Source: Somniosus microcephalus (taxonomy: Eukaryota). From it: DNA of 64,000 nucleotides. The translations under genes and the position numbers were made by a program. This document shows positions 2,403 through 64,000 of this stretch, one piece after another. The first letter of the stretch is position 1. Each line of letters starts with the position of its first letter. The stretch covers positions 67,890,001 to 67,954,000 of the forward strand of contig CM126219.1 in NCBI GenBank assembly GCA_052327205.1, written 5' to 3'. Below the pieces are notes generated by a model. The model did not search any database and was not told the origin of the DNA. It saw nothing but the letters and a program-made list of their open reading frames with translations.

Positions 2403-2594
2403 TGTAATGTATATACCTTTAAGGGGGGGAACTATGTTTTACAGCTCATGTATACTGCAGTACCAGCAGTGACCACACCTGTATATAACACCGAGTAGTA
2501 ATCTGTACAGTTCAGTTACAGTGTGAGCCACGTTGAGTAAAGACCTGTTGTACCGTTCTCCGCAGTCTGTGTCTGATTATACACGGACACAACA
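2403..2594 (+). repeat. 3' LTR of Gypsy copy 1
   Basis: TG...CA ends, follows the PPT, homologous to LTRs 3074-3285 and 7995-8210; TATA-like gtatataa. Confidence 0.9.
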
Positions 2595-18912: not shown

Positions 18913-20020
18913 ATGAACATTCTGAGGTACCCAAACCCTGTACTGTTGAAGCAGAAGGCTGCTTGACAAAATCTCACCCAGCCAAGCACCCACCCTCCCA
19001 TTCACATCAACCTGTTTCCAGAATACCACTACTGGTGCTTTGGCTTCCTAGAGGGAAGTGTATGTAATCCTATGGAGATTCTGATCCAATTTCCACTCCA
19101 CAAGTCTGTGTTTATCCACTCCATGACACATCATGTTATAGAACTACTTTTTATTTTAATAAAGAGACATGTTTAGCAAGGTGAAGGATTTACCTAGTTT
19201 GGATATTTGCCACCTTGGTGATGAGGTACTAGATTCAGCTAAATCGTCACCTCTTTGCATAAACCACCTCATACCAGTACAGCTGAAACATCCCCAGTGA
19301 CATTTCATTCCCCTACTGTTCAGTTTGTATCAAGCTTGGGCAAGTGGAATCATAGGAACCAGGTTGTAGTCGGAAGAAGGTTATACAGAGGCAAAGAATA
19401 CAAAGTTCAGGCAGAGTTCTCTGACAGAGCAGTGCAGGGCTTGTGACACACATTCTACTTATTAAAACAAAATGAAATACAGCAAAGTCCAAATCCCCAA
19501 TTAGTCATGTAAAGCCTCATCTGGTGACTGACTGAAGCAGTACGAGAGCTCTCATTACTGCGAACGGTAACCAGGTTTTTTGTAGCAATCTGTTCAATTG
19601 TTTCTTAAAAGACATTTTTACAACCGTTCTTCTTTTCCCCTCTTCATAGCATGAATAAAAGGACAAAAACTGTAAGCATTGTATCACAGAATGGTCAACT
19701 CCAATTTTAATTGCCCCAGCCCAGCTGCTCCAGTTATTAAAATTGCTGCAATGCAGATGACATAAGGTATCACTTCATAAAAGGTATGAATTTAATTACA
19801 CTGAAACAAGCCGGATGAATTGGTTTGGGACACTAATACAGACAGAGTAACCTTTAATGCACTACTAAAATTAGAATCGATATTTAAAATGAAACTCAAT
19901 ATACATTCGTTTTTAGCATCCTGCTGGAGACGACATTAAATCATTCAAAAACATGTGATTCACCAGATTTTAATGACGCATGAAAAATGAGTTATTAAAT
20001 CAACGTGACTGTCAAGAGTG

Positions 20021-41322: not shown

Positions 41323-42610
41323 GAAGGGGTTTCGATTCATGGGGCACTGGCACCAGTACTGGGGAAAGAGGGAGCTGTTCTGTTGGGACGGGCTCCACTT
41401 AACCCGGGCTAGGACCAGTGTCCTGGCAAATCAAATAACTAGGGCAGTAGACAGGGCTTTAAACGAATGAAGGGGGGAGCGGGGGGCGGGATGATTCGGG
41501 AAAGAGTAAATTTAAAAGCAGCAAGAGAAATGTCAAGGCTCTAGAGCAGATTGGAGTTTTGGGTAAAAATAAGCAGCGGGTCAGGAAGGGACAGAGCGAG
41601 GAACAAAGATAATAAGGCATCAGTGACTATGGTGACATCAGGTAAAAAGAGAAATAAGTCAAAGCTAAAGGCACTATATCTGAGTGCGCGAAGCATTCGC
41701 AACAAAATGGATGAATTAATAGCGCAGATAGAAATGAACAGGTTTGATCTAATAGCCATAATGGAGACGTGGTTGCAAAGTGGCCAAGGTTGGGAACTAA
41801 ATATTCCAGGATACATAACTTTTAGAAGAAATAGGCAAAGTGGAAAAGGAGGAGGGGTAGCCCTGATAATAAAGGATGGGATAAAGACAGTAGAGAGAAA
41901 GGATCTTAGCTCCGAAAATCAAGAAGTAGAATCAGTTTGGGTGGAGCTAAGAAACAGCAAGGGGCAGAAAACATTGGTGGGAGTTGTTTATAGGCCCCCA
42001 AACAGTAGTTGTAATGTAGGGCAGAGTATAAATCAGGAAATTAGAGGCGCATGTTACAAGGGTAATACATTAATCATGGGGGACTTTAAAACACATATAG
42101 ACTGAGCAAACCAATTTGCAGTAATAATGTGGAGGACGAATTCATGGAATGAATACAAGATAGTTTTCGAGATCAGTTTTTTGAGGAACCAACGAGGGAA
42201 CAGGCTATTTTAGATCTAGAATTGTGCAATGAGAAATTAATAACCTTGTAGTAAAGGGACCCTTAGGGAAGAGTAACCATAATATGATAGAATTTTATAT
42301 TGAGTTTGAAAGTGACTTCGTTAAATCCGAAACTAGGGTCTTAAATCTAAACAAAGCAAACTACGTAGGTATGAGGGGCGAGTTGGCTAAGGTAGATTGG
42401 GAAACGACATTAAAGGGTATGGCGGTGGAAGAGCAATGGCTAGCATTTAAAGAATTAATACATAATTTACAACAAATATGCATTCCTTTAAGGCACAAAA
42501 ACTCTACAGGAAAAGTGGTCCAACTGTGGCTAACAAGAGAAGTTAAAGGTAGTATTAGATTAAATGAAGAGGTTTAGAATAAGGAAATGGCAGAGAAATT
42601 AAACAAATAC

Positions 42611-43325
42611 ATGGAGGGGGGGGTGGGTTTCCCAGCCCTGAGGAGGTGGATTTGGAGGCGGGACTGCTGAGAAAATGGCAGAAACTGGGAGCGGGTTTTG
42701 GGACTTATCCCCATTTTGCCCCTGCAAGTGCAGGCTCCCCGACGGCTGCGAACCTTGCCAGGGTCAGCGAGGTGAGCAGTGGGTCTGCGGGGGTGAGAGG
42801 GATCAAAAAGTGCGCTGTGGAGGTGAGTGATGGGTGCAAGTGTGGAGAGGTAAGTGTGAGAGGTGAGTGTAAAGTGTTAGGAAAAGTTTACTTACCTTTG
42901 TTTCATCCTGCAGGCTTCAACCCTTGGGGATCCGGAGGTGCCTCATCTCAACAGCAGAGATGACAGAATGGTTGCTGATTTCTCAGATGCAGCAGCCATC
43001 TGATTTCTGCGGAGGAAAGAGGTTTTGGTGAGCCTTTGTGCAAGGACTCACTATAGAACAGAGATTATCAGTGTTTGACAGCTTCTCTAAGCTGTCAAAT
43101 GCTGACAATTCATCTGTCAAAAATTTTCGAGAGATGAATTGTCATACACTGATGTCCTCTGTCACCGGCCTTCCCGTAATTGGCCGAATAAATCCGCAGG
43201 GCGGGCTTAACAAGGTCAATCAAGGGAAAAGAGCGTGGGTTGGCCAGACGTTGTTGGAGGCGGAACTAAAACCCGACAACCAGCAGTCCCGCCCCCAACG
43301 CACCCCCGTTGATAAAATCCAGCCC
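42611..43325. mobile_element. Harbinger-type MITE (left end damaged) inside CR1
   Basis: Interrupts CR1 aaacaaatac|tttgtgtctg; right end aaaatccagccc; shares ggcgggcttaacaaggtcaat with ~52350-52370. Confidence 0.6.
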
Positions 43326-43720
43326 TTTGTGTCTGTCTTCACGGAAGACGCAAAAAACTTCCCAGAAATAGTGGGCCTAGCGAAAATGAGGAACGGAAAG
43401 ATATTAGTATTAGTAAAAAAGTAGTACTGGAGAAATTAATGGGACTGAAAGCCGGTAAATCCCCTGGACCTGATGGCCTACATCCTAGGGTTTTGAAAGA
43501 GTTGGCTTTAGAGATAGTGGATGCATTGGTTGTCATTTTCCAAAATTCCATAGATTCTAGAACGGTTCCCACAGATTGGAAGGTAGCAAATGTAACCCTA
43601 CTATTTAAGAAAGGAGGGAGAGGAAAACGGGGAACTACAGACCAGTTAGCCTGACATCAGTAGTAGGGAAAATGCTAGAATCTATTATTAAGGACGTGGT
43701 AACAGGGCACTTAGAAAATA

Positions 43721-45622
43721 CACAACACCAGGTTATAGTCCAACAGCTTTATTTGAAATCACAAGCTTTCGGAGCGCTGCTCCTTCTTCAGGTGAAGTGG
43801 AGAAATGCATAAAGACACAGCTTATATAGTCAGAGAATCATGTCAGATGTTTACAGGTAACCTTTCCAACTGCCATTTGTCACACCTCGGCAGAGAGATA
43901 ATCACAGCAGTCAAAGGTGTGAATGGTGTCCAAACAGGTCAGTCAGGGAAACATTACATCAAAGAACAATGAGGTGGGGTCACAAGGGGTCAAATATTGC
44001 AGATGCTGGGGTCTGTATGAAAAACACGAGCAAGACTTCTTCGCTGCACAGGACCTCCAACCAACGCTATACACCAGATACATCGACGACATTTTCTTCC
44101 TATGGACCTACGGCGAAGAATCACTGAAAAGACTACACGATAACATCAACAAGTTCCATCCCACCATCAAACTCACCATGGACTACTCCTCAGAATCAGT
44201 CTCATTCCTGGACACACGAATCTCCATCAAAGACGGACACCTCAGCACTTCACTCTACCGCAAGCCCACGGACAACCTCACGATGCTTCACTTCTCCAGC
44301 TTCCACCCTAACCACGTTAAAGAAGCCATCCCCTATGGACAAGCCCTGCGAATACACAGGATCTGCTCAGACGAGGAGGAACGCAATGGACACCTACAGA
44401 CACTGAAAGACGCCCTTGTAAGAACGGGATATGACGCTCGACTCGTCGATCGACAGTTCCGACGGGCCACAGCGAAAAATCGCATAGACCTCCTCAGAAG
44501 ACAAACACGGGACACAACCAACAGAGTACCCTTCGTCGTCCAGTACTTCCCCGGAGCGGAGAAACTACGCCATGTTCTTCGCAGCCTTCAACATGTCATC
44601 GATGACGACGAACACCTCGCTAAGGCCATCCCCATGCCGCCACTACTCGCTTTCAAACAGCCGCCTAACCTCAAACAGACCATCGTTCGCAGCAAATTAC
44701 CCAGCTTCCAGGAGAACAGCGACCACGACACCACACAACCCTGCCAAGACATGCCAGATCATCAACACAGATACCATCATCACACGTGAGGACACCACCC
44801 ACCAGGTACATGGTACATACTCATGTGACTCGGCCAACATTGTCTACCTCATACGTTGCAGGAAAGGATGCCCCGGAGCATGGTACATCGGCGAGACCAT
44901 GCAGACACTGCGACAACGGATGAACGGACACCGCGCAACAATCACCAGGCAGGAGTGTTCCCTCCCAGTCGGGGAACACTTCAGCAGTCAAGGACATTCA
45001 GCCTCCGATCTTCGGGTAAGCATTCTCCAAGGTGGCCTTCGAGACACACGACAACGCAAAATCGTCGAGCAGAAACTGATAGCCAAGTTCCGCACCCATG
45101 AGGACGGCCTTAACCGAGATCTTGGGTTCATGTCACGCTACATGTAACCCCACCTGATGCAGGGTCATCCAGACTCGAGTCGACATTGGCTTGTTCTCTC
45201 TACACAGATGCGGCCGGACCTGCTGTGATTTCCAGCCAAAAAAAATGTTTTTTGTCTGTTTTTTTGTTTTTCATACAGGCCCCAGCATCTGCAATATTTG
45301 ACCCCTTGTGACCCCACCTCATTGTTCTTTGATGTAATGTTTCCCTGACTGACCTGTTTGGACACCATTCACACCTTTGACTGCTGTGATTATCTCTCTG
45401 CCGAGGTGTGACAAATGGCAGTTGGAAAGGTTACCTGTAAACATCTGACATGATTCTCTGACTATATAAGCTGTGTCTTTATGCATTTCTCCACTTCACC
45501 TGAAGAAGGAGCAGCGCTCCGAAAGCTTGTGATTTCAAATAAAGCTGTTGGACTATAACCTGGTGTTGTGTGATTTCTTACATTTGTCCACCCCAGTCCA
45601 ACTCCGGCATCTCCACACCATG
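43721..45622 (+). mobile_element. Penelope-like element, 5'-truncated, with inverted pLTR
   Basis: RT RYIDDIFF and SFLD; GIY-YIG NIVYLIRC...WYIGET...GLNRD (to 45147); 307-bp inverted arms 43720-44026 and 45265-45571; 12-bp TSD acttagaaaata at 43709-43720 and 45623-45634. Confidence 0.96.
45497..45531 (+). ncRNA. Minimal hammerhead ribozyme motif in the pLTR (mirror copy on the minus strand at ~43760-43794)
   Basis: cac-CTGAAGA-a-ggagc-agc-gctcc-GAAA-gc-tt-gtg. Confidence 0.75.
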
Positions 45623-47230: not shown

Positions 47231-50200
47231 TGTGGTGATTATTCTTTATGTTTAGTAAGAAGTATTGTGATTGGTTGTTTGTTTCCTGCCTTGGGATATA
47301 TGCTGTAATCTCATTGGTAGTTGATGTCATGTGATTTGTGGTGGCCATCTTAAATTCAGTTCTTTCCAGCCTTTAGTTGGGACTGGGTGTTGAAAGATGT
47401 GCTACAGGATTTTTAAGTTAATAAAGCCTAGATTAGAAAGGCAAATCTATTCTTTATTTCAATTTATTAACTTAATGTCAGAATGGAGCGATATCTTCAA
47501 CCAGAACGATTCAATGCTGACCCTAATTCTGCAGGAGTGGATGATAAATGGAAACATTGGTATTGTACATTTAAAAACTTTTTGGGCGTGTTGGATCAAG
47601 AGTCTCTAAATAAGCTGAATATGCTGATCAACTACATTGCTCCGGATGTGTATAAGTATATTTTGGACTGTAAAACTTACGAAGTGGCTATTTCTACATT
47701 GGAAAAGATTTTTGTTAAACCAAAGAATGAGGTATTTGCACGTCACCTTCTATCTGCCCGTAGGCAGCAGGTGGGAGAATCTTTGGATACTTATTTACAA
47801 GCACTTCGGTGCCTTAGTGTTAACTGTAATTATAAGGCCGTGACGGCTGAAGAATATAAGGAAGAATCGGTACGGGATGCTTTTATTAATGGATTACTGT
47901 CTAGATCAATTCGTCAGCGGTTGTTAGAAAATAAGACTTTGGATCTTAAGCGTGCTTTTGAGCAAGCTTCTACATTGGATGTGGCTCAGAGAAGTTCGGA
48001 TTCTTATGCTCTTTTTAATCGGCCTGTGACTGTGGTTTCAGCAGTTCTGGATGAAAAGGAATTATGTGGACTTAATAGGAGTGGTTTACTAGATTCTGAA
48101 ACAGTTTCTACTTCAGCGGCTGTTGCCTCTAGGATTCAGAAGTGTTATTTTTGTGGGAACGTCCGGCACCCTCGTCTGAAGTGTCCTGCTCAGGAGGCTG
48201 TGTGTAGTAAATGCGGCAAGAGAGGTCATTACGCACGTGTGTGTAAATCATCAGGCTCAATTACCTCCTCTGTGACTATTCAGCCTTTAGATAGGGCGTT
48301 TATTGCATCAATTTCTGCTGCATTTGCTCATGGCCTAAACAAAGCTATAGTTACGGCCCAAGTTAATGGGTTGGAAGTGAAGGCCCTTATAGATACGGGC
48401 AGTACCGAGAGTTTTATAAGTCTTCAGTTTGCAAAGGAGAAGCATTTGAAAATTTTGCCTGTTTCCTATCAGGTGTGTATGGCTCAGACGACTCTCACTT
48501 CACAAGTAGCTGGTTGTTGCCTTGTGAAATTGATTCTTCTAGGTAATACGTATACTGATATACGCCTATCTGTTTTGCCTAATCTCTGTGCGGATATTTT
48601 GATTGGTCATGATGTGCTTCAGTTACACGAGTCTCTCAGTCTTTCATTTGGCGGGACTAAGCCACCTTTATCTATTTGTGGATTAACCTCTTTATCCATT
48701 TCTCCATTATCACTTTTTTCCAATTTGATGCCGGATTGTAAGCCAATTGCTACCAAGTCAAGAAGGTATAGCAGTCAGGATAGAGAATTTATTAATTCTG
48801 AAGTTCAACGTCTCTTATTGGAAGGAATCATTGAACCTAGTTGTTCGCCTTGGCGGGCACAGGTAGTTGTCACGACTAACGAGAGACATAAGAAACGAAT
48901 GGTGATAGACTATTCCCAAACTATTAATAGGTATACTCAATTAGATGCGTACCCTTTGCCTAAGATTGATGAGCTTATCAATAAAGTATCTCAGTATAAG
49001 GTTTTTAGCACTATTGACCTAAAGAGTGCTTATCATCAGATTCCTATTGTTAAGAAGGATCAACCATATACGGTCTTTGAGGCTGGTGGAAAGCTGTATC
49101 AGTTTTGCCGAATACCATTTGGTGTTACTAATGGTGTTGCTTGTTTTCAACAGGCAATGGATGCTTTTATAAGTGATAACTCTCTCTCTGACACCTTTTC
49201 ATACTTAGATGACATCACGGTGTGTGGCAAATCAAGGGTGGAGCATGATTCTAATTTAGAAAGATTCCTTCAAGCTGTGGAAAAAGTTGGTTTAACTTTC
49301 AATAAAGAGAAGTGTACCTTTTCGACCACTGAGGTAAATCTACTGGGGTACATTATCTTGGGAAACAAGATTAAACCAGACCCAGAACGTCTGCGACCAT
49401 TGATTGATTTACCTTGTCCTACTAATTCTAAGGCTTTGCAACGAGTTGTTGGACTGTTTTCTTACTATTCTAATTGGATTGCAAATTTTTCACAGAAGAT
49501 CCGGCCTCTTATTCGGGTTACGACATATCCTCTATCATGGGAGGCCAGGACGTGTTTTGATAATTTTAAAAAGGATATCCTTGGAGCAGTTGTGCATTCT
49601 ATTGATGAGCAGGTTCCTTTTGTGATTGAGACGGACGCTTCTGATTTTGCAATTGGGGCTACTCTGAACCAAAATGGAAGACCTGTGGCCTTTTTCTCAC
49701 GTACCTTGAACAATAGTGAAAAAAGGCATTCTTCAATAGAGAAAGAGGCGTATGCAATAGTAGAAGCACTGCGTAAGTGTAGACATTATTTATCGGGGCG
49801 ACATTTTACGTTGGTAACTGATCAAAAGTCTGTGTCCTTTATGTTTGATGTCAAACATTTTGGAAAGATTAAGAATGACAAAATAATGAGGTGGAGGATT
49901 GAGTTGGCATGTTACCATTTTGATATAGTTTATCGTCCGGGGAAGGATAATGTTGCTGCTGATGCGCTGTCGAGGGCTTATTGTTCTGTGATTCACGGAG
50001 ATACACTTATTAATCTTCACAATGCCTTATGCCATCCTGGGGTTACGAGGATGATACACTTCGTACGCAGTAAGAATTTGCCCTTTTCAGTTGAAGACAT
50101 CAAGCGGATGACTTCATCATGTTCTATCTGTGCTCGGTGTAAACCGAATTTCTTTAAGCCTCAACGAGCTCATCTTATAAAGGCTACTTCTCCTTTTGAA

Positions 50201-51638
50201 CGTTTGAGCGTCGATTTCAAGGGGCCTCTTCCTTCAATTACTCAAAACCGATATATATTTACTGTTGTGGATGAGTTTTCAAGGTTCCCTTTTGCTTTTC
50301 CTTGCGCAGATGTATCAGCTGCTACAGTTATCAAATGTCTGACTCAACTTTTTGTCATCTTTGGGATGCCTGCGTATATCCATTCGGATCAGGGAAGTTC
50401 TTTTATGTCTTCCCAGTTGAAGGAATACCTTCAGAGTCGGGGAATTTCTACTAGCAGAACTACCCCGTATAATCCCCAGGGTAATGAACAGTGCGAACGA
50501 TACAATGGGGTGATCTGGAAGGCAGTTATGTTGGCTTTGACATCCCGGAACCTTAAGAATACACAGTGGGAAATGGTACTGCCTGATGCCCTGCATTCCA
50601 TTAGATCATTGCTTTCAACGGCTACTAATGTGACCCCCCATGAAAGGCTCTTTAACTATCCGCGGAGATCTACTACGGGATATTCGGTACCTTCATGGCT
50701 TACTAAGCAGGGACCTGTGCTGCTTCGACGCCATGTTAGATTGTCAAAATATGATCCTTTAGTGGAGGAGGTGGAGCTGTTGGGGGCAAATTCCCAATAT
50801 GCTCATATTCGATTCCAAGATGGGAAAGAAAGTACCGTTTCAATTAAAGACTTGGCTGCTTGTGGTGGCCAGCCCTCTTCTGAGGATATTAACAATAGTC
50901 ATGATTCAGATAATGTGGATGCTGTTACAGATACTACGAATATTTCCAATCCGACTGCAGATAATTATACTTCTATTAGTCAGCCCTCGATGGATGTTCA
51001 TGACCATCCCAGTTTACCTCCTGATGGGATTTCTAATCCGGAAACCGTTGAAAATCGGAATATGGATAGCCTTCCTGCAGAAGATACTTCTGTGTCTCCT
51101 GGTGTGGGAGGGCAAGGAATTTCACCAAGGTTGAGAAGGTCGACACGAACAAGATATCCGGTCGACCGATTGAAAATGGACTTTTAAATTGATAGTAATG
51201 TTTTAAAATTGTTGAAATATTATATTATATTGTTTTAGTTGAGAGATACTTAATACTTATGTGCAATGTTACTATTTGTTGTTGCTCACTTAGTATTGTG
51301 TCATGTTGAATAGTTTTATTTTGTCTGTGCATAGTTTTACTTGTAAATAATTAATTATAAATTGTAAAGGTTATTTAGGTTGGAGTATATTTTAAAAGAA
51401 GGGGTGAATGTGGTGATTATTCTTTATGTTTAGTAAGAAGTATTGTGATTGGTTGTTTGTTTCCTGCCTTGGGACATATGCTGTAATCTCATTGGTAGTT
51501 GATGTCATGTGATTTGTGGTGGCCATCTTAAATTCAGTTCTTTCCAGCCTTTAGTTGGGACTGGGTGTTGAAGATGTGCTACAGGATTTTTAAGTTAATA
51601 AAGCCTAGGTTAGAAAGGCAAATCTATTCTTTATTTCA
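47231..51638 (+). mobile_element. Young full-length Gypsy LTR retrotransposon with a single intact ORF
   Basis: LTRs 47231-47461 and 51409-51638 (3 differences seen); 5-bp TSD ccttc at 47226-47230 and 51639-51643; PPT aaaagaaggggtgaa before 51409. Confidence 0.98.
47483..51187 (+). CDS. Gag-Pol polyprotein, 1234 aa (Gag 2xCCHC, protease, RT, RNase H, integrase)
   Basis: CYFCGNVRHPRLKC, CSKCGKRGHYARVC, LIDTGS, YLDD, ETDASD, ADALSR, H-x4-H...CSIC, VDFKG/SDQG/CERYN; no stops. Confidence 0.97.
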   Translation: MERYLQPERFNADPNSAGVDDKWKHWYCTFKNFLGVLDQESLNKLNMLINYIAPDVYKYILDCKTYEVAISTLEKIFVKPKNEVFARHLLSARRQQVGESLDTYLQALRCLSVNCNYKAVTAEEYKEESVRDAFINGLLSRSIRQRLLENKTLDLKRAFEQASTLDVAQRSSDSYALFNRPVTVVSAVLDEKELCGLNRSGLLDSETVSTSAAVASRIQKCYFCGNVRHPRLKCPAQEAVCSKCGKRGHYARVCKSSGSITSSVTIQPLDRAFIASISAAFAHGLNKAIVTAQVNGLEVKALIDTGSTESFISLQFAKEKHLKILPVSYQVCMAQTTLTSQVAGCCLVKLILLGNTYTDIRLSVLPNLCADILIGHDVLQLHESLSLSFGGTKPPLSICGLTSLSISPLSLFSNLMPDCKPIATKSRRYSSQDREFINSEVQRLLLEGIIEPSCSPWRAQVVVTTNERHKKRMVIDYSQTINRYTQLDAYPLPKIDELINKVSQYKVFSTIDLKSAYHQIPIVKKDQPYTVFEAGGKLYQFCRIPFGVTNGVACFQQAMDAFISDNSLSDTFSYLDDITVCGKSRVEHDSNLERFLQAVEKVGLTFNKEKCTFSTTEVNLLGYIILGNKIKPDPERLRPLIDLPCPTNSKALQRVVGLFSYYSNWIANFSQKIRPLIRVTTYPLSWEARTCFDNFKKDILGAVVHSIDEQVPFVIETDASDFAIGATLNQNGRPVAFFSRTLNNSEKRHSSIEKEAYAIVEALRKCRHYLSGRHFTLVTDQKSVSFMFDVKHFGKIKNDKIMRWRIELACYHFDIVYRPGKDNVAADALSRAYCSVIHGDTLINLHNALCHPGVTRMIHFVRSKNLPFSVEDIKRMTSSCSICARCKPNFFKPQRAHLIKATSPFERLSVDFKGPLPSITQNRYIFTVVDEFSRFPFAFPCADVSAATVIKCLTQLFVIFGMPAYIHSDQGSSFMSSQLKEYLQSRGISTSRTTPYNPQGNEQCERYNGVIWKAVMLALTSRNLKNTQWEMVLPDALHSIRSLLSTATNVTPHERLFNYPRRSTTGYSVPSWLTKQGPVLLRRHVRLSKYDPLVEEVELLGANSQYAHIRFQDGKESTVSIKDLAACGGQPSSEDINNSHDSDNVDAVTDTTNISNPTADNYTSISQPSMDVHDHPSLPPDGISNPETVENRNMDSLPAEDTSVSPGVGGQGISPRLRRSTRTRYPVDRLKMDF

Positions 51639-51677
51639 CCTTCCTACTTGCTTGCTGCACCTGCATGCTAACTCTCT

Positions 51678-52468
51678 GGCCAGAAGGGGGTGGGTTTGGA
51701 GGCAGGACATCTGGCAAAATCGCAAAGATTGATAGCGGGCAGGAAACCCGCTGTCAACCCGCCTCCAATCAATTTTCCCAAGTGTCGGGTCCCCGATTTG
51801 CACATGGACCCGACACCTAGCGGCGGGAAGAGGATTATAGCCACTTAACTGCCTGTTAAAGGTTATTAATAAGCAGTTAACAGGCTCTTTTTCAATTTTG
51901 CTGCTTCTGCCTCAGGGTTCCCGACGTCCGGACACCACGCCAGGTAAGTGTGGCGTGTTGTGAATCTGCTGTAATGTTTTTGCATTGATGACAGCTGCAG
52001 AAGTGGTGTGAAGGATCCAGTGGTGCACTGTTGAGTTTCAGAGGTAAGAAAATGTTGGGAAATTCATTTTTAATGCATTTAGACTTTTCTGTAGTTAACA
52101 AATTTTGAATTGTACGTGTAGTCCCACCACATTGGGAGAACCACTCTCACCAGTGACAGATCACTTCTGTAACCTCACCTGCAGCTGCCATCTGTTCTAG
52201 CCTAAAGAGGGAGTCACTGGAGAGCCTGGGTGCAAGGGTTCACCTTTGTACAGTGATTGGCAGTGTTTGCAGCACCTCAATGCTGTCAAACACTGAGAAA
52301 TCATCTGTCAAACAAAAATTGTGTGTGGCCCCTTTAAGAAAACGGCAAGGCGGGCTTAACAAGGTCAATTGACGTAAAATCACATCTATGGGCTGGATTT
52401 AGTTGGGGGTGGGACTGGAACTTGGGAGCCACCTGACCCGCTCCCAAGCGATCGAGAAAATCGCGGCC
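51678..52468. mobile_element. Harbinger-type MITE or compound MITE (GGCC/GGGC termini)
   Basis: Interrupts CR1 with 3-bp TSD tct at 51675-51677 and 52469-52471; ends aaaatcgcggcc; internal second terminus gggctggattt at ~52390. Confidence 0.7.
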
Positions 52469-54725
52469 TCTGTGTTTCCTGTATGAGGACACATAAATTT
52501 CTCTGAACACCAACATTTAATAATTTCTCACCATTTAAAAAATATTCTGTTTTTATATTCTTCCTACCAAAGTGAATAATCTCACATTTCCCCACATTAT
52601 ACTCCATTATACTGATTGCCCACTCATTTAAATTGTCTATAACCCTTTGCAGGCTCTTTGTGTCCTCCTCACAGCTTACTTTTCCACCTTGCTTTGTATC
52701 ATCAGCAAACTTGGATACATTACTCTCTGTCCCTTCATCTAAGTCATTAATATACATTGTAAATAGTTGAGGCCCAAGCACTGATCCTTGCGGCACCCCA
52801 CTAGTTATAGTCTACCAATCTGAATATGACCCGTTTATCCCAACTTTCTGTCCATTAACCAATCCTCTATCCATGCTAATACATTACCTCCAATCCCATG
52901 AGCCCGTATCTTGTGTAACAACCTTTTATGTGGCACCTTATCGAATGCCTTTTGGAAATCCAAATATACTACATCCACTAGTTCCCCTTTATCTACCCTG
53001 CTAGTTACATCCTCAAAAAACTCTAATAAATTTGTCAAACACGATTTCCCTTTCATAAAACCATGTTGACTCTGCCTAATCATATTATGATTTTCTAAGT
53101 GCCCTGTTACCACTTCCTTAACAATGGATTCCAGCATTTTCCCGATGACTGATGTCAGGCTAACTGGCCTGTAGTTCCCTGTTTTCTTTCACCCTCATTT
53201 CTTGAATAACCGGGTTACATTAGCTACCTTCCAATCCACTAGGACCTTTCCAGAATCTAGGGAATTTTGGAAGATCACAACCAACACATCCACTATCTCT
53301 GCAGCCACCTCTTTTAGAAACCTAGAATGTAGTCCATCAGGTCCAGGGGATTTCTCGACTTTTAGTCCCATTAGTTTCCCAAGTACTTTTTCGCTACTGA
53401 TATTAATTACTTTAAGTTCCTCATTCTCATAAGCCCCTTGGTTCCCCATTATTTTTGGTATACATTTTGTGCCTTCTACTGTGAAGACAGATACAAAATA
53501 TTTATTTAAGGTCACTGCCATTTCCTTGTTTCCCAATATAAGTTCTCCTGTCTCAGCCTCTAAGGGACCAATGTTTGCTTTTGCTACTCTCTTCCTTTTT
53601 ACATACTTGTAGAAGCTCTTACAATAAGTTCTTATATTTCTTGCTAATTTCTATTTTCTCCCTTTTAATCAATTTTTTGTTCATCCTTTGCTGGTTTCTA
53701 AAGCTCTCCCAATCACCAGTCTTATTACTATTCTTTGCAACATTATAAGCCTCTTCTTTTAATCTAATATTATACTTAACTTCTTTAGTTAGCCACGGTA
53801 GGATCACTTTTCCTGTGGATTTTTAAAAATTTCTCAATGGAATGTATATTCGTTTAGAATATTGGAATATTTCTTCAAATGTTTTCTACTGTTATACCTT
53901 TTAGTCTAGTTTCCCAATCTACCTTAGCCAACTCGCCCTTCATACCTACGTAATTGGCTTTATTTAAGTTTAAGACTCTAGTTTCGGACTTAAGAATGTC
54001 ACTCTCAAATTTAACGTGAAATTCTATCATATTATGATCACTCCTCCCCAGAGGATTCTTTACTATGAGATTACTAATTAACCCTGTCTCATTACACAAG
54101 AATAAATTTAAAATAACTTGTTCCCTGATTGGTTCCATGACATATTATTCTAGGAAATTGTCTCGAATGCATTCTATGAACTCATCCTCCAGACTACCCT
54201 TGCCAATTTAATTTGTCAAATCTATATGAAGATTAAAGTCCCCCATGATTATTGCATTACCTTTGTTACAAGCCCCTATTATTTCTTGATTAATATTCTG
54301 TCCAGTGGTATAGCTACTGTTAGGGGGCCAATAACTACTCCCACCGCTGTTTCCTGCCCCTTGTTATTCCTTATCTCCATCCATACTGAATCTACTTCCT
54401 GATCTTCTGAGCCATGATCCTTTCTCGCTACTGTCCTTAAGTCATCCTTAATTATCAGGGCTACCCCACCTCCTGTTCTAGCCTGCCTGTCTTTTTGAAA
54501 CGTCAAGTACCCTGGAATATTTAATTCCCAACCTTGGTCACCTTGCAGCCATGTCTCTGCAATTGCTATTATATCAAAGCCATTTATTTCTATTTGTGCC
54601 ACTAATTCATCTATCTTGCTACAGATGCTTCATGCATTCAGATAAAGGGCCTTTAATTTTAACTTTTTACCAGTATTCTCTGCTTTGACCTTATTCGCTG
54701 ATGCACAATTACCTTTAAACTCTCT

Positions 54726-55480
54726 GGAGGAGAAATTCAGTATTGCCCCATTTGGGGCGCAATTATTGGCCGGGCGCAAAGATTAGCTGCTGGTGCTAAT
54801 TATCGCCTCCGACTGCAAACTTGGCACACTGGCGCCAGCCAGTTCTTAAAGGGGAGGATCAATCTTGCTCTCCATCCACACCCTGCTCATTGCAGCCTTG
54901 AATCTCGGCCTGGAGAGACCTGTACATCAAATCTGTTGGAAAGAACAATGGAGAGACCCAGGGAAAGAGCTCAGAGTGCAGCCCCCATATTCTCTTCTAA
55001 ATCGATGCAAGGAAGATCAAATCAAAATGAACCTGCAAAGTGCTGCTCAGTACCCAAAACTCCTCAACACAGCTTTGAATATCTCCTGCAGTCTCTCTCT
55101 CTCTCTCTCAGAATGCGTGGTGCAAAAATTTCGCCAACAAAAAAAGGCAGGAAGTGGTCGCCTTTAAATAGCGCTCCCCCAGTCCCTTCCCGACTGCAAA
55201 ACGCTCCCTTCAACCCGTCGTTGCTAATGGCAGGCGGTAAGACAGGGGGCGGCACTCAATATCTGGTCTGGGGCACTACCGGGGTGTTACACTCTTGACT
55301 GACGTCACGATCTGCGGGCGTAGGAGATCGTGGCGGTAGTGTTTAGCGCCGCCGCAAAATGTCTAGTTAATTTCGTGAGCGGCGCAAACATCGCCGCGCA
55401 TGGGCACTAGTTGCTTTGCACCCCATTAGCACCCTCTTAAGGCGCTAACAGGAGGCGCAAATCAACCGAATTTTTCTCCC
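54726..55480 (+). mobile_element. Non-autonomous derivative (MITE) of the 58789-62975 Harbinger family
   Basis: TIRs ggaggagaaattcagt / accgaatttttctccc; TSD tct at 54723-54725 and 55481-55483; colinear with 62987-63874 apart from a ~130-bp deletion. Confidence 0.92.
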
Positions 55481-55825
55481 TCTGTCCCTTCCTGTTCCAC
55501 ACTGCTTATTTTTACCCAATTCACTGCACTGCTCTGTTTCCTTGACTGTTGTCTTTAGATTACTAAATATCCCCTCACCTGCTCCCTCCCCCACCTTTAT
55601 AGTTTAAAGCCCTATCTACAGCCCTTTGCCTCACTCCATTTTTAAAAACTAAGTCATACACTGCCTCTTTCCTGCTTGGACTATTTATTCAGAACATTCC
55701 TGGACATTTTGTAGAATTTCCTCTTCTTCTTTGTCATTTAATTTACCTATAGCTCAGTCTCTCTTTGTTAATTAAAGTCACCCATTCTTATAGTCCTTTT
55801 GTTGCTGCACTTTTCCAGTGTTATT

Positions 55826-56280
55826 GTCTTCCATTCCCACCACAAACTTCATTCCCTAACCATTGACTCCATCTCTCTCCCTGGCCACTGTTTAAGGATG
55901 AACCAGACTGTTCGCAATTTTGCCATCCTATTTGACCCTGAGCTGAGCTTCTGATCCATATCCTCTACATCACCAAGACGGCCAACTTCAACCTCTGTAA
56001 TATCTCCCGTCTCCGCCCTGCCTCAGCTCATCTGCTGCTGACATCCTCATCCATGCCTTTGTGCCTCTAGTCTAGACTGTTGCAATGCTCTCCAGGCTGG
56101 CCTCCAACCTTGTACCCTCTGTAAACTTGAGCTTTTCGAAAACTCTGCTACCTGTACACTAACTCGCACCAAGTCCCGTTCACCCAGCACCCCTGTGCTC
56201 GCAGACCTACATTGGCTTCCTGTCCAACAACGCCTCAATTTTAAAATTCTCATCCTTGTTTTCAAATCCCTCCATGGCCC
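55826..56280 (+). mobile_element. L2-type LINE fragment
   Basis: ctcatccatgcctttgtgcctctagtctagactgttgcaatgctctc...ctacattggcttcctgtc...ttttaaaattctc (LIHAF, LHWLPV, FKIL-type motifs). Confidence 0.75.
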
Positions 56281-56555
56281 TTAAATGGATACAACTCTAT
56301 CTTAGCAACAGTCAGTGTGTAGCACTCCTGGCTTTGCAAAACAGCGCATTAACTAATTTACCAGGGGACATACACTAGCATATAGCTTTGAGACAGGTAC
56401 ATTTTCCTTCAGATATCACACTTTGTATAAAACACCAACAAATCACCGCTGAATGTTGTTTTTTAAGAAAGTGTAAAAAAGAGGACAGCTAGCTTCTAAG
56501 TGACCTCAGCAATTAAACCTTGTGGCCTTAGAGAGACAGGCTAGATAATCGCAGC

Positions 56556-57003
56556 TCATAGAATCTTACAGCACAGAAGGAGGCCATTCGGCCCATCGTG
56601 CCTGTGCTGGCTTTTTGAAAAATCTATCCAATTAGTCCCAGCACCCCGCTCTTTCCCCAAAGCCCTGCAATTTTTTTCTTTTAAAATATATATCCAATTC
56701 CTTTTTGAAAGTTACTATTGAATCTGCTTCCACCACCCTTCTCCTCATCTCCCTTCTGGTTATTTTGCCAGTTATCTTAAATCTGTGTCTTCTGGTTACC
56801 AATCCACCTGCCAGTGGAAGCAGTTTCTCCTTAATTTACTCTATGAAACCCCTTCTTGATTTTGAACATCTCTATTAAGTCTCCCCTTAACCTTCTCTGC
56901 TCTGAGGAGAACAATCTCAGCTTCTCCAGTCTCTCCACATAACTGAAGTCTCTCATCCCTGGTACCATTCTAGTAAATCTCCTCTGCACCCTCTCCAAGG
57001 CCT
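56556..57003 (-). mobile_element. CR1 3' fragment
   Basis: Similar to 38126-38640. Confidence 0.85.
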
Positions 57004-57374
57004 ACCTTATCAACGGAATAACACATTGTGAGTTACATCATATGTTACATCCACCCTGTTATAAACCTGCACGTCCTCCAGCAAAGCCATAGGAGATCTG
57101 TTAGCATCAACATAAAAAGGCTTCTGCTGATAAGATGATTAGAATGGATGAGTTGTTGGGTTATTAGTGAAAAAAAATTAAAATTTGATTACAGTTAGTT
57201 TGCCGGATGATTGTGTGTTAATGTGAAGTTATGAGGTAAGAATAGTTGGGCAGGTATCTGGGTAGTCCCTCGTGTGGAAATATTTCTTGTTCAATACATG
57301 GCAGCTGCTGTAATTGTTATTCCTTGGTAATGGCGTAATTTGTTACAGCAATGATGTCATAGAGGCAAATTCAC

Positions 57375-57720
57375 AGAATCACAGAAACCCCACAGTGCAG
57401 ATAGAGGCCATTTCGGCCCATCGAGCCTGCACCGACACATATCCCACCCGATCCCTGTAACCCCTACACATATCCCACCCTATCCCCGTAACCCCACGTA
57501 TTTAATCCCCCTAACACTAAGGGTCAATTTATCATAGCCAATCAACCTAACCTGCACATCTTTGGACTGTGGGAGGAAACCGGAGCACCCGGAGTAAACC
57601 CACGCAAACACGGGGAGAATGTGCAAACTCCACACAGACAGTTGCCCGAGGCTGGATTCGAACCCGGGTCCCTGGCGCTGTGAGGCAACAGTGCTAACCA
57701 CTATGCCACCGTGCTGCCCC
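57375..57720 (-). mobile_element. HE1-type V-SINE
   Basis: Reverse complement of the 10151-10390 head and V-domain (ggcagcacggtggcatagtggttagcactg...ggttcgaatcc) with a CR1-type tail. Confidence 0.9.
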
Positions 57721-57889
57721 CTGGGATAGATTTTCCAATCAGGCCTTATTTGAGCAGTGAGTTATTGGCACCCCCGCGACAGTTACAAGTGCTGACCTCA
57801 CCGTTATCCACTATCTGAGATAGTGAGGTGAGTGGCTCTGTTTGCCATCCCAGTAGAACTGACTTTGTAGGTATCGTACTGCCAGTGGC

Positions 57890-58660
57890 TGTGAAAGGCA
57901 CAACTGCCCTGAATTGCTTGTTTTACTAAGTGGACATTCCAGGCTGCCACTGGGACCATCAGTAATATTATCAATCACCTGTGCACGAATGCATAAAGCA
58001 GGTCACAGATGCATTGTTCGCTCGGGCGAGCTCGTTCATCCAGCTCCCCATGGACAACAATTTTACACAGTGGCAGGATTCCCCAAGGTCGGCAAAATCA
58101 TACCCTTGTGTGGCCATAAGTGCGCCCTTGATCAATCCCATCATCAGTCAACGGGACAGGATTCTACTCTCTCAATCGCAGTGTGTATTTGACCAGCAGC
58201 ACTGCATCATGTAAATCAATGCCCACTTTCCACTCACTGCCATGTTGCCTTAATTTTAAGGCAGTCCACTGTGCCCACTCTATTTCATCCAGAAAGACCA
58301 ATTTTTGGGTGGATTGTGTAGATCAAGGCTACATTCTACCCCATAGCTGATGACACCTGTGTGCCTTCCCAGGAGACCAGCTGAGCACGGCTATTCTTCC
58401 ACCAGAGTTATCACCAGAGCACACAATTGGAAAGGTGAAGGTGCATTTCAGGTTCCTGGAATAGTCTAGGGGAGCTCTGCAAATAAGTCCAACTAGAATC
58501 TCAAGCAGCACAGTGATCTGCTTACAAAGAGGCTTCCCGATGGAACTCCTGGAGGAGGAGAGCACTCAAGGACAGCAGTGGGATCAACCAGAGGAGTGAC
58601 AGCCTAAGAGGACACAGAGGACAACTCATTGCTGATTGCAAGAGATATTCATGTCCATCT
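57890..58660 (+). pseudogene. Highly decayed Harbinger (HARBI1-like) transposase relic
   Basis: Fragments in shifting frames: CIKQVTDALFAR, VAGFPKV, DQGY, EHTIGKVKVHFRFLE*SRGALQ; same order as the transposase at 61319-62462. Confidence 0.75.
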
Positions 58661-59148
58661 GATACAGGAGAGCTTCCCCTGAGTACCTGAATACACTGCA
58701 TGAACAGTCCTGTATAAATCTTCCCCAACACAAAAATGTCGCCATCTACAGACAGGTCTTTACACACATCAACTCACATAGGGTCATAGGGGGAAAAATT
58801 CAGTATCGCCCCGTTTGGGGCGCCATTATCGGCCGTGCGCAATGTTTAGCGCCTGGCGCTAATTATCGCCTCCGACTGCAAACTTGGCTTTTATCGCCCC
58901 GGAGGTGATTGGAGCGCTAAATCAGGCGCTACACACCTGCCTTAAGGCGCAAAGGCTGAGGAGTGAGGTGCTAACTCAGAGCGCGGGTGCAGCGCAGGTG
59001 CTGTCAGTTAGCGATGGAACACAGACACACTGGCACCGGGCAGTTCATAAAGGGGAGGGTCGATCTTGCTCTCCAGCCACACCCTGCTCATTGCAGCCTT
59101 GAATCTCGGCCTGGAGAGACCTGTGCCTAAATCTCCCAGCCAAGGACT

Positions 59149-59384
59149 ATGGAGAGGGTGAGAGAACGAGCTCAGCGCTTCAGCGAGCGGGCCTTGGAGG
59201 CTCTGGTTTGTGCGGTGGAGCGCAGAAGATCAATACTGTATCCAGAGAGTGGCAGGAGGCCTTTGCCACGCGAGTACAGAAGAGCGTGGAGGGAGGTGCT
59301 CAGAGCGTCTTCTCATGGAGCATGGTGCCCAGGACCCATACTCAATGCCGAAAAAAGGTCAACGACCTCACTCGGGTCGTCAGG
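59149..59384 (+). pseudogene. Harbinger Myb/SANT-like gene exon 1 (one frameshift)
   Basis: MERVRERAQRFSERALEALV...RRAWREV, then shifted frame RTHTQCRKKVNDL; agg|gtgagt donor; 236 bp. Confidence 0.85.
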
Positions 59385-59525
59385 GTGAGTGGCTTTTTTT
59401 CAATACCTCTCCATCCCTCCATCTCAACCTCACTCTATGGCCAGAGGGTCTTAAAACCCCAATGCCCAACACTCATCCAACACCTATGGCCCTCTCATGA
59501 AACACACACGCACTTTCCACACTTT

Positions 59526-59688
59526 GCATACAATAAGGGCTATTCAATTATGGGAGGCACATCAGGCAAGACCATGGCTGCATACAGTAAGGGCTATTCA
59601 ATTATGGGAGGCACATCAGGCAAGGCCATGGCTGCATACAGTAAGGGCTATTCAATTATGGGAGGCACATCAGGCAAGACCATGGCTG
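59526..59688. repeat. 3 x 54-bp tandem repeat in Myb gene intron 1
   Basis: gcatacagtaagggctattcaattatgggaggcacatcaggcaagaccatggct at 59526, 59580 and 59634. Confidence 0.95.
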
Positions 59689-59722
59689 TATATTTACTCA
59701 GACGCCGTCCTTTTTCTTGCAG

Positions 59723-59885
59723 GCCAAGCTATCTCATAATAGGAGACAGCAGCAACGGACGGGTGGAGGGCGGCCTCAGCTGCAACCCCTCAGCGATCTT
59801 GAGGCGCGCGTCCATAGGATTGTGGCAAGCCGGGTGATCGGTCCCGTCGCCCCTGGAGAGGCCGACCCCATTCTGGACAGCAATG
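59723..59885 (+). CDS. Harbinger Myb/SANT-like gene exon 2
   Basis: tttttcttgcag acceptor; AKLSHNRRQQQRTGGGRP (TGGG motif); g|gtaag donor; 163 bp, phase 0-1. Confidence 0.85.
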
Positions 59886-60044
59886 GTAAGGTCATCACCT
59901 TTTTGTCCTCTCTCGTTCCACTTGTCCCTCACAACACCAGCCTTTGACACTTTCAATCCAACTTACTAAATCGCTGCACTCATTCCTCCCTTACTGCCCC
60001 CCTGTCCTCACACTAAAGCCACTCTTGTACCTCCCTGCTTTCAG

Positions 60045-61021
60045 ATGGTGATTCACCAGCTGAGGAGACGGGCCCTCATGATGCCAGTGGGAGTGAAGCT
60101 GCAGGCGAGGAGGAAGATGAAGCCGGAGCATCAGCACCACCCTCTCCCGAGGAAGCCCATGCCCACACTGGGAACACGCCTTCCCTGGAGGGGAGCAGGG
60201 GAGAAGGGTCTGATGAGGGTGAAGCTCCAGGATCCAGCGGGCTGCAGCAACGCGATGGGGGTAGGGAAGCTCGGGGGCCTTCTCCCTGGAGGAAGAGTAG
60301 GCCAACGAGTCCTGCTGCACTGGATGCAGAGGAGAAGCGGCTCATCGCTGAAATGAACACCCAGGCGGTGGACATGTACACTCAGCTCATGGGTGCAGTG
60401 GGAAGGGTGCCCGAATCCATTGAATCACCGGCAAGGAGTGGGGAGCACTACGCTGTAGCACAGGCGGATGCCACACTAAAGTTTAGCGCTGCAATTCAGT
60501 CACTGGCTGCCATGACCCCATCTCAGACTGCTCTCATGCAGACTCAGATTGAGGCCATGCAAGCACTGACTGCTGCCATCCTCGCTGGTTCAGACACATT
60601 TCCCCGGGGCTCTCACCGCACCGCAGCAGGCCAGCAATCTGTGCTCCAGCAGATTGCTCCGGATGCTGAAGTGCTGCCCCGTGGGAGTGCCAGTGTGTTG
60701 GTCGAGCAGGGAGTTGCTGTCCTTTCTCAAGATGACAACATTCCTGCTGCCACCACTGCCACTTCTCCATTGCACTTGCCACCGCCTGTAAACCAGACTG
60801 CTGCCGCCCATGCAGAGTTGGTGCAGTCTGCAGCTGGGCCCTCCAGGCCCAGAGCTGGTCGAGGCCATCCTTCAAGGACATCTGTAGTCTCAGGTTCTGA
60901 CAATCAGCAGCCTTCCACCAGCCTTGCTGCAGCCACTGGGGTCCCATTACGGAGGAGCAGTAGGGTGGGAAGGGGGGAAGTGCGCAAGGGAAGGAGATCA
61001 CCCTCGAAGGGCAAAAAGTAG
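60045..61021 (+). CDS. Harbinger Myb/SANT-like gene exon 3 (acidic/disordered region, helical region, basic NLS-like tail)
   Basis: ctgctttcag acceptor; phase-1 frame is open by hand translation and joins ORF 60353-61021, ending RKGRRSPSKGKK*. Confidence 0.82.
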
Positions 61022-61047
61022 GAGGTGTGACAAAATGTTGTTCATTT

Positions 61048-61056
61048 TTTATTAAA
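61048..61056. terminator. Overlapping bidirectional polyadenylation signal candidate
   Basis: tttattaaa gives ATTAAA on + and AATAAA on -, between the two convergent stop codons. Confidence 0.5.
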
Positions 61057-61318
61057 GGCCGAGGTTCGTGGTCAAACTTTTGTTTAGTGTTTTGCACATT
61101 ATCTCCAGGTTGTGAGAACCAGTTATGTTAATGACTTTTTTCATGTTTCTTTCTATTAGTTTGTCATGAGGAAATGACACACACAGAGTTTGTAAAATAA
61201 TTAAGTTTTTGTATTCAAAATGTACATGTTTGATCTTTGGAATCATTGCTGCCTTGGCCGGCTTAGGGGTTGTGGGTTGGTTTCATTCATGTTGTTCTCA
61301 ATGGCAGAAGCCATTTCC

Positions 61319-62462
61319 TCAGCAGGGGCCTAGAAGCGGCTTGCTATCAGCTTCAACATTGTGGGCTTCCCTCCCGCCTTGGTGCTGCTGACGATCATCC
61401 TCCTCCTCTTCCTCCTCCTCTTCCTCCTCCTCCTCTGGTGGTGCTCCAAGGCCTGGTGGCATTGGCTGGGTCCTGAGGATTGCCAGGTTATGCAGCATGC
61501 AGCACACAACAACGAAGTGGGAGACTCGCTCAGGTGAGTACTGCAGGGCTCCTCCTGAGTGGTCCAGACAGCGGAACCGTTGCTTGAGCACGCCGATTGT
61601 GTGCTCAACGATGTTCCTGGTAGTGAGATGGCTCTCGTTGTATCGTTGCTCAGCAGGGGTGTTGGAGTTATGGAGCAGTGTCATCAGCCAGGTGCACAGT
61701 GGATATCCCTTGTCCCTGAGAAGCCAACCACTTGGGTGATGCGGTGCCTGGAAAAGTTCTGCCACAGTAGTCTGACGCAGGATGAATGCATCGTGGCTGC
61801 TGCCAGGATAGCAGGCATTGACAGCGAGTATCAGCTGTCTGTGGTCACAGGCCAACTGGACGTTTAAGGAGTGGAACCCCTTTCGGTTGCGGAAATCCTC
61901 TGCATTCTCATGCGGTGCCCGCAATGCCACATGTGTGCAGTCAATGGCGCCCTGCACCATGGGGAAGCCCGCTATCCTCGCAAAGCCCATTGCGCATTCA
62001 TGCTGTTTGGCCCGGGTTATTGGGAAAGAGATGTACTCTCGTCTCCTTTTATAGAGGGCATTTGTGACCTGACGGATGCAGCAATGGACCGTGAACTGGG
62101 AGATATTGCCGATGTCCCCAGTAGCTGCTTGAAAGGAGCCGGTGGCATAAAAGTTCAGAGCCACTGTTATCTTCACTGCCACCGACAGAGATGTCCTGCT
62201 CCTCAGTTGAGGCTGCAGATCTGGCTGCAGCAGGTGGCAGAGCTCAGTGACCACCTTCTTGCTGAAGCGCAGCCTTCGCAAACAGTGCTCCTCAGACGTA
62301 GGAGAATTGTTGGCGAAATACCCTGGGAGGGTAAGGTCTCCTGTACAGAGGCCTGTTGGCCCTTCTCCCCCGTCTGGCCATGATTGCCACTCTCTCTCTG
62401 CGTCTCTGTGCCCTCCGAATCTGCAGGCACAGGACAACGGCCCCAATCAGTGCAGCCCCCAT
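61319..62462 (-). pseudogene. Harbinger DDE transposase (HARBI1-like); frameshift near 62300 and probably near 61360
   Basis: ATG 62462 MGAALIG...RRPYPPRVFR; then LRRLRFSK, FYATGSFQ, GAIDCTHV, GSSHDAFIL, DKGY, IVEHTIGVLKQRFRCLD, CCMLHN, poly-E. Confidence 0.93.
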
Positions 62463-62986
62463 AGTATCTTGGCAATCAAAGTAATGAAGGTCAAAAACCA
62501 AAGCACCTGCAAAGTGATGCTCAGTAGCCAAAACTACTTCACATAGCAAAGACTCTATGCAGAAGTCTCTCTTCTCTCTCAGAATCTCTCTCTCTGTCAG
62601 AACGAGTGGTGCAAAAATGTCTACGACAGGAAAAGCCAGGAAGAGGCCGCCTTTAAATAGTCCCCCCCCCCACCGCCCCAGCCCCACAGCGACTGGGAAG
62701 CGTTCCAGTCTACCTGTCGTTGCTTGCGCCAGGCGGAAAGGAGGGGGGTGCCACTCAATATCCATTCTGGGGCGCCACAAGGGCGCTGCACGCTCGAATG
62801 ACGTCAAGATCTGCGGGCGCAGGAGATCAAGGCGGTATTATTTATTGCCGCCGCAAAATGTCTGGTCAATTTTGCGAGAGGCGCAGATATCGCCGCGCCC
62901 GGGCACAAGTTTGCGCCCCATTAGCGCCCTCTTAAGGCGCTAACGGGAGGCGCAAACCAACTGAATTTTTCCCCCATAGAGTCATA

Positions 62987-63874
62987 GGGGGAAAAATTCA
63001 GTATCGTCCCGTTTGGGGCGCGATTATCGGCCGTGCGTAAAGTTTAGTGCCTGGCGCTAATTATCGCCTCCAACTGCAAACTTGGCTTTTATCGCCCCTG
63101 GAGTTGATTGGAGCGCTAAATCAGGCGCTACACACCTCTCTTAAGGTGCAAAGGCCGAGGAGCGAGGCGCTAACTCAGAGCGCTGGCGAAGGTCATGTGA
63201 TATCAGTCAGCAATGGAACACAGACACAATGGCGCTGGCCAGTTCTTAAAGGGGAGGGTCGATCTTGCTCTCCATCCACACCCTGCTCATTGCCGCCTTG
63301 AATCTCGGCCTGGAGAGACCTGTACATCAAATCTTTGGAAAGAACAATGGAGAGGCCCAGGGAAAGAGCTCAGAGTGCAGCCCCATAGTCTCTTCTAAAT
63401 CGATGCAAGGAAGGTCAAAGCAAAATGAACCTGCAAAGTGCTGCTCTGTGCCCAGAACTCCTTCACACAGCGTTGAATCTCTCCAGAAGTCTCTCTCTCT
63501 CTCAGAATGCGTGGTGCAAAAATGTCACCAACAAAAAAAGGCAGAAAGCGGTCACCTTTAAATAGCGCTCTCCCAGTCCCTTCCCAACTGCAAAACGCTC
63601 CCCTCAACCTGTCGTTGCTAGTGGCAGGCGGTAAGGCAGGGGGTGCCACTCAATATCCGGTCCGGGGCGCTACCGGGGCGTTGCACGCTCGATTGACGTC
63701 ACGATCTGCGGGTGCAGAAGACCGTGGCAGTAGTGTTTAGCGCCGCCACAAAATGTCTCGTTAATTTCATGAGCGGCGCAAACATCGCCGTGCACGGGCG
63801 CTGGTTGCTTTGCGCCCCATTAGCGCCCTCTTAAGGTGCTAATAGGAGGCGCAAACCAACTGAATTTTTCCTCC
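62987..63874 (+). mobile_element. 888-bp non-autonomous Harbinger derivative
   Basis: TIR gggggaaaaattcagt / actgaatttttcctcc; TSD ata at 62984-62986 and 63875-63877; both ends homologous to 58789-62975. Confidence 0.96.
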
Positions 63875-64000
63875 ATAGAGTTATACAGCACAGAAAGAGG
63901 CCCTTCGGCCCATCGTGCCTGCGCCGGTCATCAAGTCCTATTTATTCTAATCCCATTTTCCAGCACTTGGTCCGTAGCCTTGTATGCTATGGCGTTTCAA
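63875..64000 (-). mobile_element. CR1 3' end; its (catagagt)n tail continues at 62976-62986 and 58777-58788
   Basis: atagagttatacagcacagaaagaggcccttcggcccatc is the reverse of a CR1 3' terminus, as at 38128 and 56557. Confidence 0.85.

Follow-up and report, generated by a model that had tools for sequence, protein, structure and literature searches.

The closest described counterpart of the elements considered here is Harbinger3_DR, a zebrafish PIF/Harbinger transposon with the target consensus AAACACCWGGTCTTT (AAACAC-CWG-GTCTTT), according to the accessible part of PMC3016246. Extended target preference is a trait of the whole superfamily, the plant version spanning 9 bp and the vertebrate version 15 bp (PMC2836001, available portion), and the same portion leaves open which protein reads which part of the target site. 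The second partner is the CR1 long interspersed nuclear element (LINE); in birds, one to four copies of the octamer ATTCTRTG/TTCTGTGA follow its 3' untranslated region (UTR), as described in the accessible text of PMC2612034. In this study, we analysed a window of 64,000 nucleotides (the whole stretch, contig CM126219.1, positions 67,890,001 to 67,954,000) in which Harbinger-type transposons lie inside CR1 LINEs, together with copies of the same families elsewhere in the genome. These Harbingers lie in a soft 15-bp palindrome with Harbinger3_DR-like flanks, and the octamer tail of CR1 is a shared hotspot; we consider it likely that the palindrome reflects an old preference that was kept and that the hotspot is its by-product. 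Papers linking Harbingers to CR1 tails were not found, which is weak evidence of novelty, as the search covered titles and abstract openings and most subscription journals and Repbase reports lie outside it.

In the 6.45-Gb genome, the 5' 20-mer of the first Harbinger family (family A) is present in 3,796 exact copies. For this family, 180 loci were picked by their terminal inverted repeats (TIRs) only, namely the first 90 of 100 listed and 30 each from three TIR variants, nearly all on contig C1. Of the 180, 137 yielded both ends (3' ends were located by an anchored search; strict 3'-end patterns missed most ends), and 105 of the 137 carried an exact target site duplication (TSD) of 3 bp, 92 at the expected end and 13 one base off. 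Removal of three duplicates left 102 unique family-A sites; the matrices do not include the 43 copies that lacked a far end or the 32 that lacked an exact TSD. In the first 88 loci, 64 TSDs were observed, whereas random pairing produced a mean of 6.3 and never more than 16. At the 102 sites, the TSDs were ATA/TAT (33), TAA/TTA (14), CAT/ATG (12), AAA/TTT (10), CAA/TTG (9), AAT/ATT (7), AAG/CTT (6), AGA/TCT (3) and others (8). Their core is HWD, with A or T as the middle base in 96 cases and CWG in one. A first-pass annotation of the window had proposed ATA/AGA as the family TSD and C-A[T/G]A-GAGT[C/T] as the general target. Both were rejected: AGA/TCT is rare in the list above, ATA/TAT, although the commonest duplication, covers only 33 sites, and an exact match to the asymmetric motif occurs at only 4 of the 102 sites.

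The preference is instead a soft palindrome of about 15 bp, A-R-A-N-W-C-[HWD]-G-W-N-T-Y-T. At the 91 sites outside CR1 tails, read in element orientation and without symmetrising, A stands four bases before the TSD in 72 and C directly before it in 54, while G or A follows it directly in 81 and T stands four bases after it in 70. The symmetrised matrix of these non-tail sites holds 6.9 bits over 19 columns, with a mean leave-one-out score of 6.5 bits, and thus the suggestion of a long, Harbinger3-like preference that reaches beyond the TSD was borne out. The commonest letters at the non-tail sites are AAACAC-TAA-GTGTTT (n=88). The same flank pattern was observed in a second TIR family, family B (30 loci sampled out of 42, of which 20 had both ends and 14 a TSD), and at TIR pairs found de novo in a 600-kb background of 60 evenly spaced 10-kb stretches from contigs C1-C5, which yielded 11 pairs (10 elements, one of them in a tail) and none after shuffling. 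The site preference is therefore common to many TIR families and is not the property of one special lineage. Many distinct Harbinger TIR families are abundant genome-wide. Harbingers have been reported absent from the elephant shark, and checks in other cartilaginous fish are asked for in the accessible part of PMC9179366; if the host is a cartilaginous fish, the abundance observed here bears on that report. In two pairs of loci (L132 and L147; L011 and L060), separate insertions hit a repeated host sequence at the same position or next to it, which suggests that repeat bodies have fixed hotspots wherever they contain the palindrome.

Compared with the Harbinger3_DR flanks, the commonest letters here are identical at 6 of 6 positions on the left (AAACAC) and at 5 of 6 on the right, a likeness that is apparent at the level of the target sequence. 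The Harbinger3_DR consensus flanks reach 12.34 of a possible 12.49 bits in our non-tail matrix, and none of 200,000 random 15-mers scored as high. In both systems, the 3-bp TSD lies within a 15-bp palindromic site, and a transposase is accompanied by a Myb-like open reading frame (ORF), which in the present elements is a candidate with a sub-threshold match. The difference lies in the core, which is CWG there and HWD here, and in the softness of the preference described here (about 7 bits); moreover, a CR1-tail hotspot is not mentioned in the accessible text of PMC3016246. With their shared flanks and changed 3-bp core, these families are naturally occurring variants that could help to assign the reading of each part of the site to the transposase or to the Myb protein. 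The plant PIF/Pong elements and their miniature inverted-repeat transposable elements of the Tourist type (MITEs; mPIF, mPing) resemble the present ones in belonging to a two-ORF superfamily with MITE derivatives, a 3-bp A/T-rich TSD and an extended preference (PMC2836001, same portion). In plants, however, the preference covers 9 bp around a TTA/TAA core, whereas here it covers 15 bp and TWA accounts for only 14 of 102 TSDs.

The CR1 tail is a good yet sub-optimal version of this site. As in birds, a repeated octamer follows the 3' UTR, here in the forms GACTCTAT, GATTCTAT or GTTTCTAT; the tail differs from its bird counterpart in being the target of another element class. On the scale with a maximum of 12.49 bits, tail sites score 7.05-7.15 (GACTC), 5.19 (GATTC) and 2.75 (GTTTC), so that the (GAYTCTAT)n tail reaches about 7.1 of 12.5 bits. 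Tail zones were defined as lying no more than 50 nt from a CR1-type 3' end, and the annotator merges LINE tails with short interspersed nuclear elements that possibly share them. Such zones hold 11 of the 102 family-A sites versus 0.39% of the background (p=4e-13), an enrichment of about 27-fold, and about 11-13% of family-A copies reside in tails. Among all 180 loci, about 23 are tail-associated, 19 by the 3' motif and four as copies stacked in tail repeats; the 39 sites from the later-added TIR-variant loci include none in a tail zone. The exact tail half-site precedes 96 and 77 of the 3,796 copies in the two orientations, versus 7 and 5 for two control half-sites, and insertion occurs at TAT between GANTC units in both orientations.

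CR1 bodies behave differently. They contain 12 of the 102 sites, compared with 174 of 1,500 random positions (11.6%) and 199 of 1,500 motif-weighted positions, and a preference for CR1 bodies was thereby ruled out. The body library was built from the CR1 copies of the window only and was used alike for sites and controls; therefore, both shares are lower bounds. Since bodies are hit at the background rate, the two body insertions of this CR1-rich window (M3 and M4, described below) need no special cause. The first-pass annotation had placed the preferred site in the CR1 tail, and its expectations of a flank signal beyond the 3-bp TSD and of tail enrichment were upheld; its generalisation to CR1 was not, as two of the four sites on which it relied lie in a body and bodies are unenriched. 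Dada and Pokey are target-specific DNA transposons that live in multicopy genomic sequence and are largely confined to their target. The present elements likewise accumulate in multicopy sequence, but only a little over one copy in ten lies in the tail.

The same figures bear on the proposal of a sequence-specific lineage with a target adapted to the CR1 tail and with LINEs serving as its safe harbour. The tail enrichment would agree with it, as would the occupation of 10 of 100 tails in one CR1 subfamily (see below) and the near-absence of the Harbinger3 core CWG, the commonest core ATA/TAT being that of the tail. However, 79 of the 102 sites are outside both the tail zones and any detectable CR1 body (which hold 11 and 12), bodies are unenriched, and the preference is common to many families. 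The optimum, AAACAC-nnn-GTGTTT, corresponds to the flanks of zebrafish Harbinger3 and not to the tail; therefore, the preference is not a trait of a CR1-tuned lineage. Because the majority of copies lie elsewhere and the tail falls short of the optimal site, we regard this explanation as very unlikely. What stands of it is the enrichment itself.

How a palindrome-reading Harbinger could turn CR1 tails into a hotspot can be sketched as follows. The transposase/Myb complex may have kept an old target preference, either retained from or convergent with Harbinger3_DR, and a symmetric transpososome would read both half-sites. Each tail would supply two or three tandem sites, GANTC-TAT-GANTC. As an insertion would duplicate only TAT, the next tail site should stay intact and usable, and later waves of other families could fill adjacent units. 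On this reading, a sufficient fit of the octamer to the site, together with its abundance, makes the tail a communal hotspot. The hotspot is real, and in our view it is produced by an ordinary Harbinger target preference and involves no new targeting mechanism. More generally, a chance sequence match can funnel one transposon class into another.

Quantitatively, the motif by itself raises the tail share that would be expected from 0.39% to 4.4% (bootstrap 1.5-8.2%). Several observations exceed this expectation and weigh against explaining the hotspot by target preference alone. The observed tail share of 10.8% is a 2.5-fold excess (p=0.005 for the point estimate and 0.22 for the upper limit of the bootstrap range), and a score-binned expectation gives 3.3 tail sites versus the 11 observed. 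The annotator also missed three tail-like sites (L030, L071 and L083) and one counted site (L004) is doubtful; the adjusted count is about 14 of 102 with the three added, or about 13 if L004 is also dropped. In addition, GAYTCTAT halves were observed 96 times where 23 were predicted (9-40). These half-site predictions from the matrix are too noisy to decide the matter: one non-tail control half-site was also under-predicted (7 versus 1.2), and the other two half-sites were bracketed. The residual tail excess stays at about 2-3x over the motif model. It is likely to stem from regional co-occurrence, decay-flattened matrices and dependence between columns; tail density is 146/Mb beside insertions versus 78/Mb in the systematic background, a factor of 1.9.

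The same residual could be read as a boost supplied by the tail, in which the 8-bp periodic array or the end of a neighbouring Harbinger recruits the transpososome, so that occupied tails become self-reinforcing landing pads. This reading would account for the 2.5-3x excess of tail matches, although the excess loses significance at the upper bound of the background and regional co-occurrence by itself provides about 1.9x. It would also account for stacking. Genome-wide, 857 matches to the pattern TIR end-ATA-GARTC-ATA-TIR start were counted, versus none to its reversed control. Inspection by eye of the first 30 of the 857 showed Harbinger-type TIRs on both sides in 28, from many families; stacked elements of different TIR families one 8-bp tail unit apart are thus a common arrangement. 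At two loci (G000, C1:110782909/110783612 and C1:284212454/284213159), two stacked-pair patterns lie about 700 bp apart, which are likely to represent three MITEs in one tail. In the unbiased set of 180 loci, a neighbouring TIR was seen in five, four of them in tail repeats.

Occupancy puts these stacks into proportion. One CR1 subfamily has 12,821 tails; of the first 100, 10 were occupied, with the TIR at the first unit in seven and at the second in three, counting visible units only; when the far ends of these 10 were scored, only two ends were visible and neither was stacked. The background, with tails of every subfamily pooled, had one occupied tail in 47, and the number of empty tail dimers is 21,641. 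From the 173 copies with a tail half-site, 70 were taken (117 of 140 sides visible): 47 had a CR1 3' motif within 80 nt and 12 had a second TIR 9-13 nt away. The difference between stacking in 12 of 70 copies and occupation of 10 of 100 tails is not significant (p=0.25), and stacking may therefore follow simply from high shared occupancy and from differences in tail age. Older tails, exposed to more waves, would cluster in the same way. On the other side, the many unseen far ends in this comparison leave room for a neighbour effect, which also counts against target preference as the full explanation. On balance, we think it unlikely that tails boost insertion. Similarly improbable, if by a shade less so, is the broader scenario in which self-reinforcing pads build hundreds of head-to-tail MITE stacks of unrelated families at LINE 3' ends, with flank reading kept and core reading evolving separately from CWG to HWD.

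Whatever their cause, about one in ten tails of the one CR1 subfamily carries a Harbinger, and several hundred tails carry two, 8 bp apart. Such stacks affect repeat annotation, where they may appear as composite false families, and as nested series they allow the activity of CR1 and Harbinger elements to be ordered.

Within the window, the arrangement is exemplified by the family-A element E1 (58789..62975, plus strand), which is full-length but defective, and by the adjacent family-A MITE M2 (62987..63874, plus strand, 888 bp). E1 has a perfect 16-bp TIR, GGGGGAAAAATTCAGT, and a TSD ATA at 58786-58788 and 62976-62978; its host site is the outer unit of a CR1 tail. M2 also has the TSD ATA, and the spacer between the two (62976..62986) reads ATA-GAGTC-ATA, that is TSD, tail sequence and TSD, which places the stacked elements one 8-bp tail unit apart. 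M2 is 88% identical to E1 in its 5' part and 76% in its 3' part; the latter value rules out a local hop or direct copy of E1. Where MITEs sit in tails, tail units and the same TSD flank the MITE on both sides, so the tail was there first and insertion of CR1 after the MITE can be ruled out. This also bears on the idea that CR1s inserted beside existing MITEs, for which a reported preference of CR1 for sites resembling its octamer (PMC2612034, in the part accessible) could be cited, or that tail insertions merely survive better. Survivor bias would favour CR1 bodies equally, yet these are unenriched, and we regard either variant as extremely improbable.

E1 combines the traits of PIF/Harbinger elements, namely a DDE transposase of the HARBI1/DDE_Tnp_4 type, a 16-bp TIR and a 3-bp TSD. 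Its transposase frame (61319..62446, minus strand) matches Pfam DDE_Tnp_4 (PF13359) with E=2.4e-37; a sequence search of the PDB with the transposase gave no match. The gene is broken, as its N-terminal part lies in another frame and its C-terminus is shifted too. The first part of ORF1 (59146..59388, plus strand) is short, interrupted and Myb/SANT-like; its N-terminal half has a weak match to Myb_DNA-bind_5 (PF13873; E=0.0013, 19.1 bits, under the 21.7 cut-off). A low-complexity frame of 334 amino acids (60017..61021, plus strand), for which a Pfam search gave no match, is likely to be a later exon of ORF1. Between the two parts of ORF1, a 57-bp unit is repeated three times (59520-59690).

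Two further MITEs lie in a CR1 body. M3 (54726..55480, plus strand, family A, 755 bp) is located just upstream of the ORF2 endonuclease region and has the TSD TCT (AGA on the minus strand), while M4 (51678..52468, minus strand, family B, 791 bp) lies within ORF2, with the TIR GGCCGCGATTTT, of which the left copy is internally deleted, and the TSD AGA on the minus strand (TCT on the plus strand). The empty sites and TSDs that had been reconstructed for E1, M2, M3 and M4 were reproduced as written, as was the assignment of a different TIR to M4, which defines the second family. The placement of all four within CR1 was likewise confirmed: the rebuilt empty sites of M3 and M4 align unbroken to other CR1 copies, and the tail at E1 and M2 follows a CR1 3' end. 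The first-pass annotation had not listed a fifth Harbinger-type MITE (42610..43325, minus strand), which lies within CR1 ORF2, has a third TIR type, GGGCTGGATTTT, and has lost its other end. Its site, AAATAC-TTT-GTGTCT, fits the palindrome and misfits the motif proposed earlier.

The host of E1 and M2 is a CR1 LINE whose 3' end and inner tail unit occupy 63875..64000 (minus strand), with the outer tail and flank at 58780-58788. This 3' end is 89% identical to the one behind an endonuclease/reverse transcriptase (RT) ORF of 980 amino acids at a locus elsewhere in the genome (L153); that ORF contains RVT_1 and Exo_endo_phos domains and stops 72 nt short of the end of the matched 3' stretch. The architecture of the host LINE is thus an ORF2 with APE endonuclease and RT, followed by a short 3' UTR and the octamer tail. 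We label it a CR1 on the basis of this tail and of its motifs. The CR1 body that carries M3 and M4 (51639..55620, minus strand) was identified by tblastn and blastn, with its boundary read from the sequence, and is cut at about 51638 by a long terminal repeat (LTR) element. The latter is a retroelement at 47471-51638 with an uninterrupted gag-pol-like frame of 1,238 amino acids; the end of its LTR and M4 are separated by about 40 bp within one and the same CR1. A further insertion in CR1 (43713-45578) is bordered by 314-bp inverted repeats with 99% complementarity and contains RT-like frames (43923-45147); it may be Penelope-like. Two related LTR-retroelement copies in inverted orientation (long inverted repeats of 90-93%) are located at 1-7356, and a GC-rich array of tandem repeats, with a period of about 54 bp, extends over 18065-18965.

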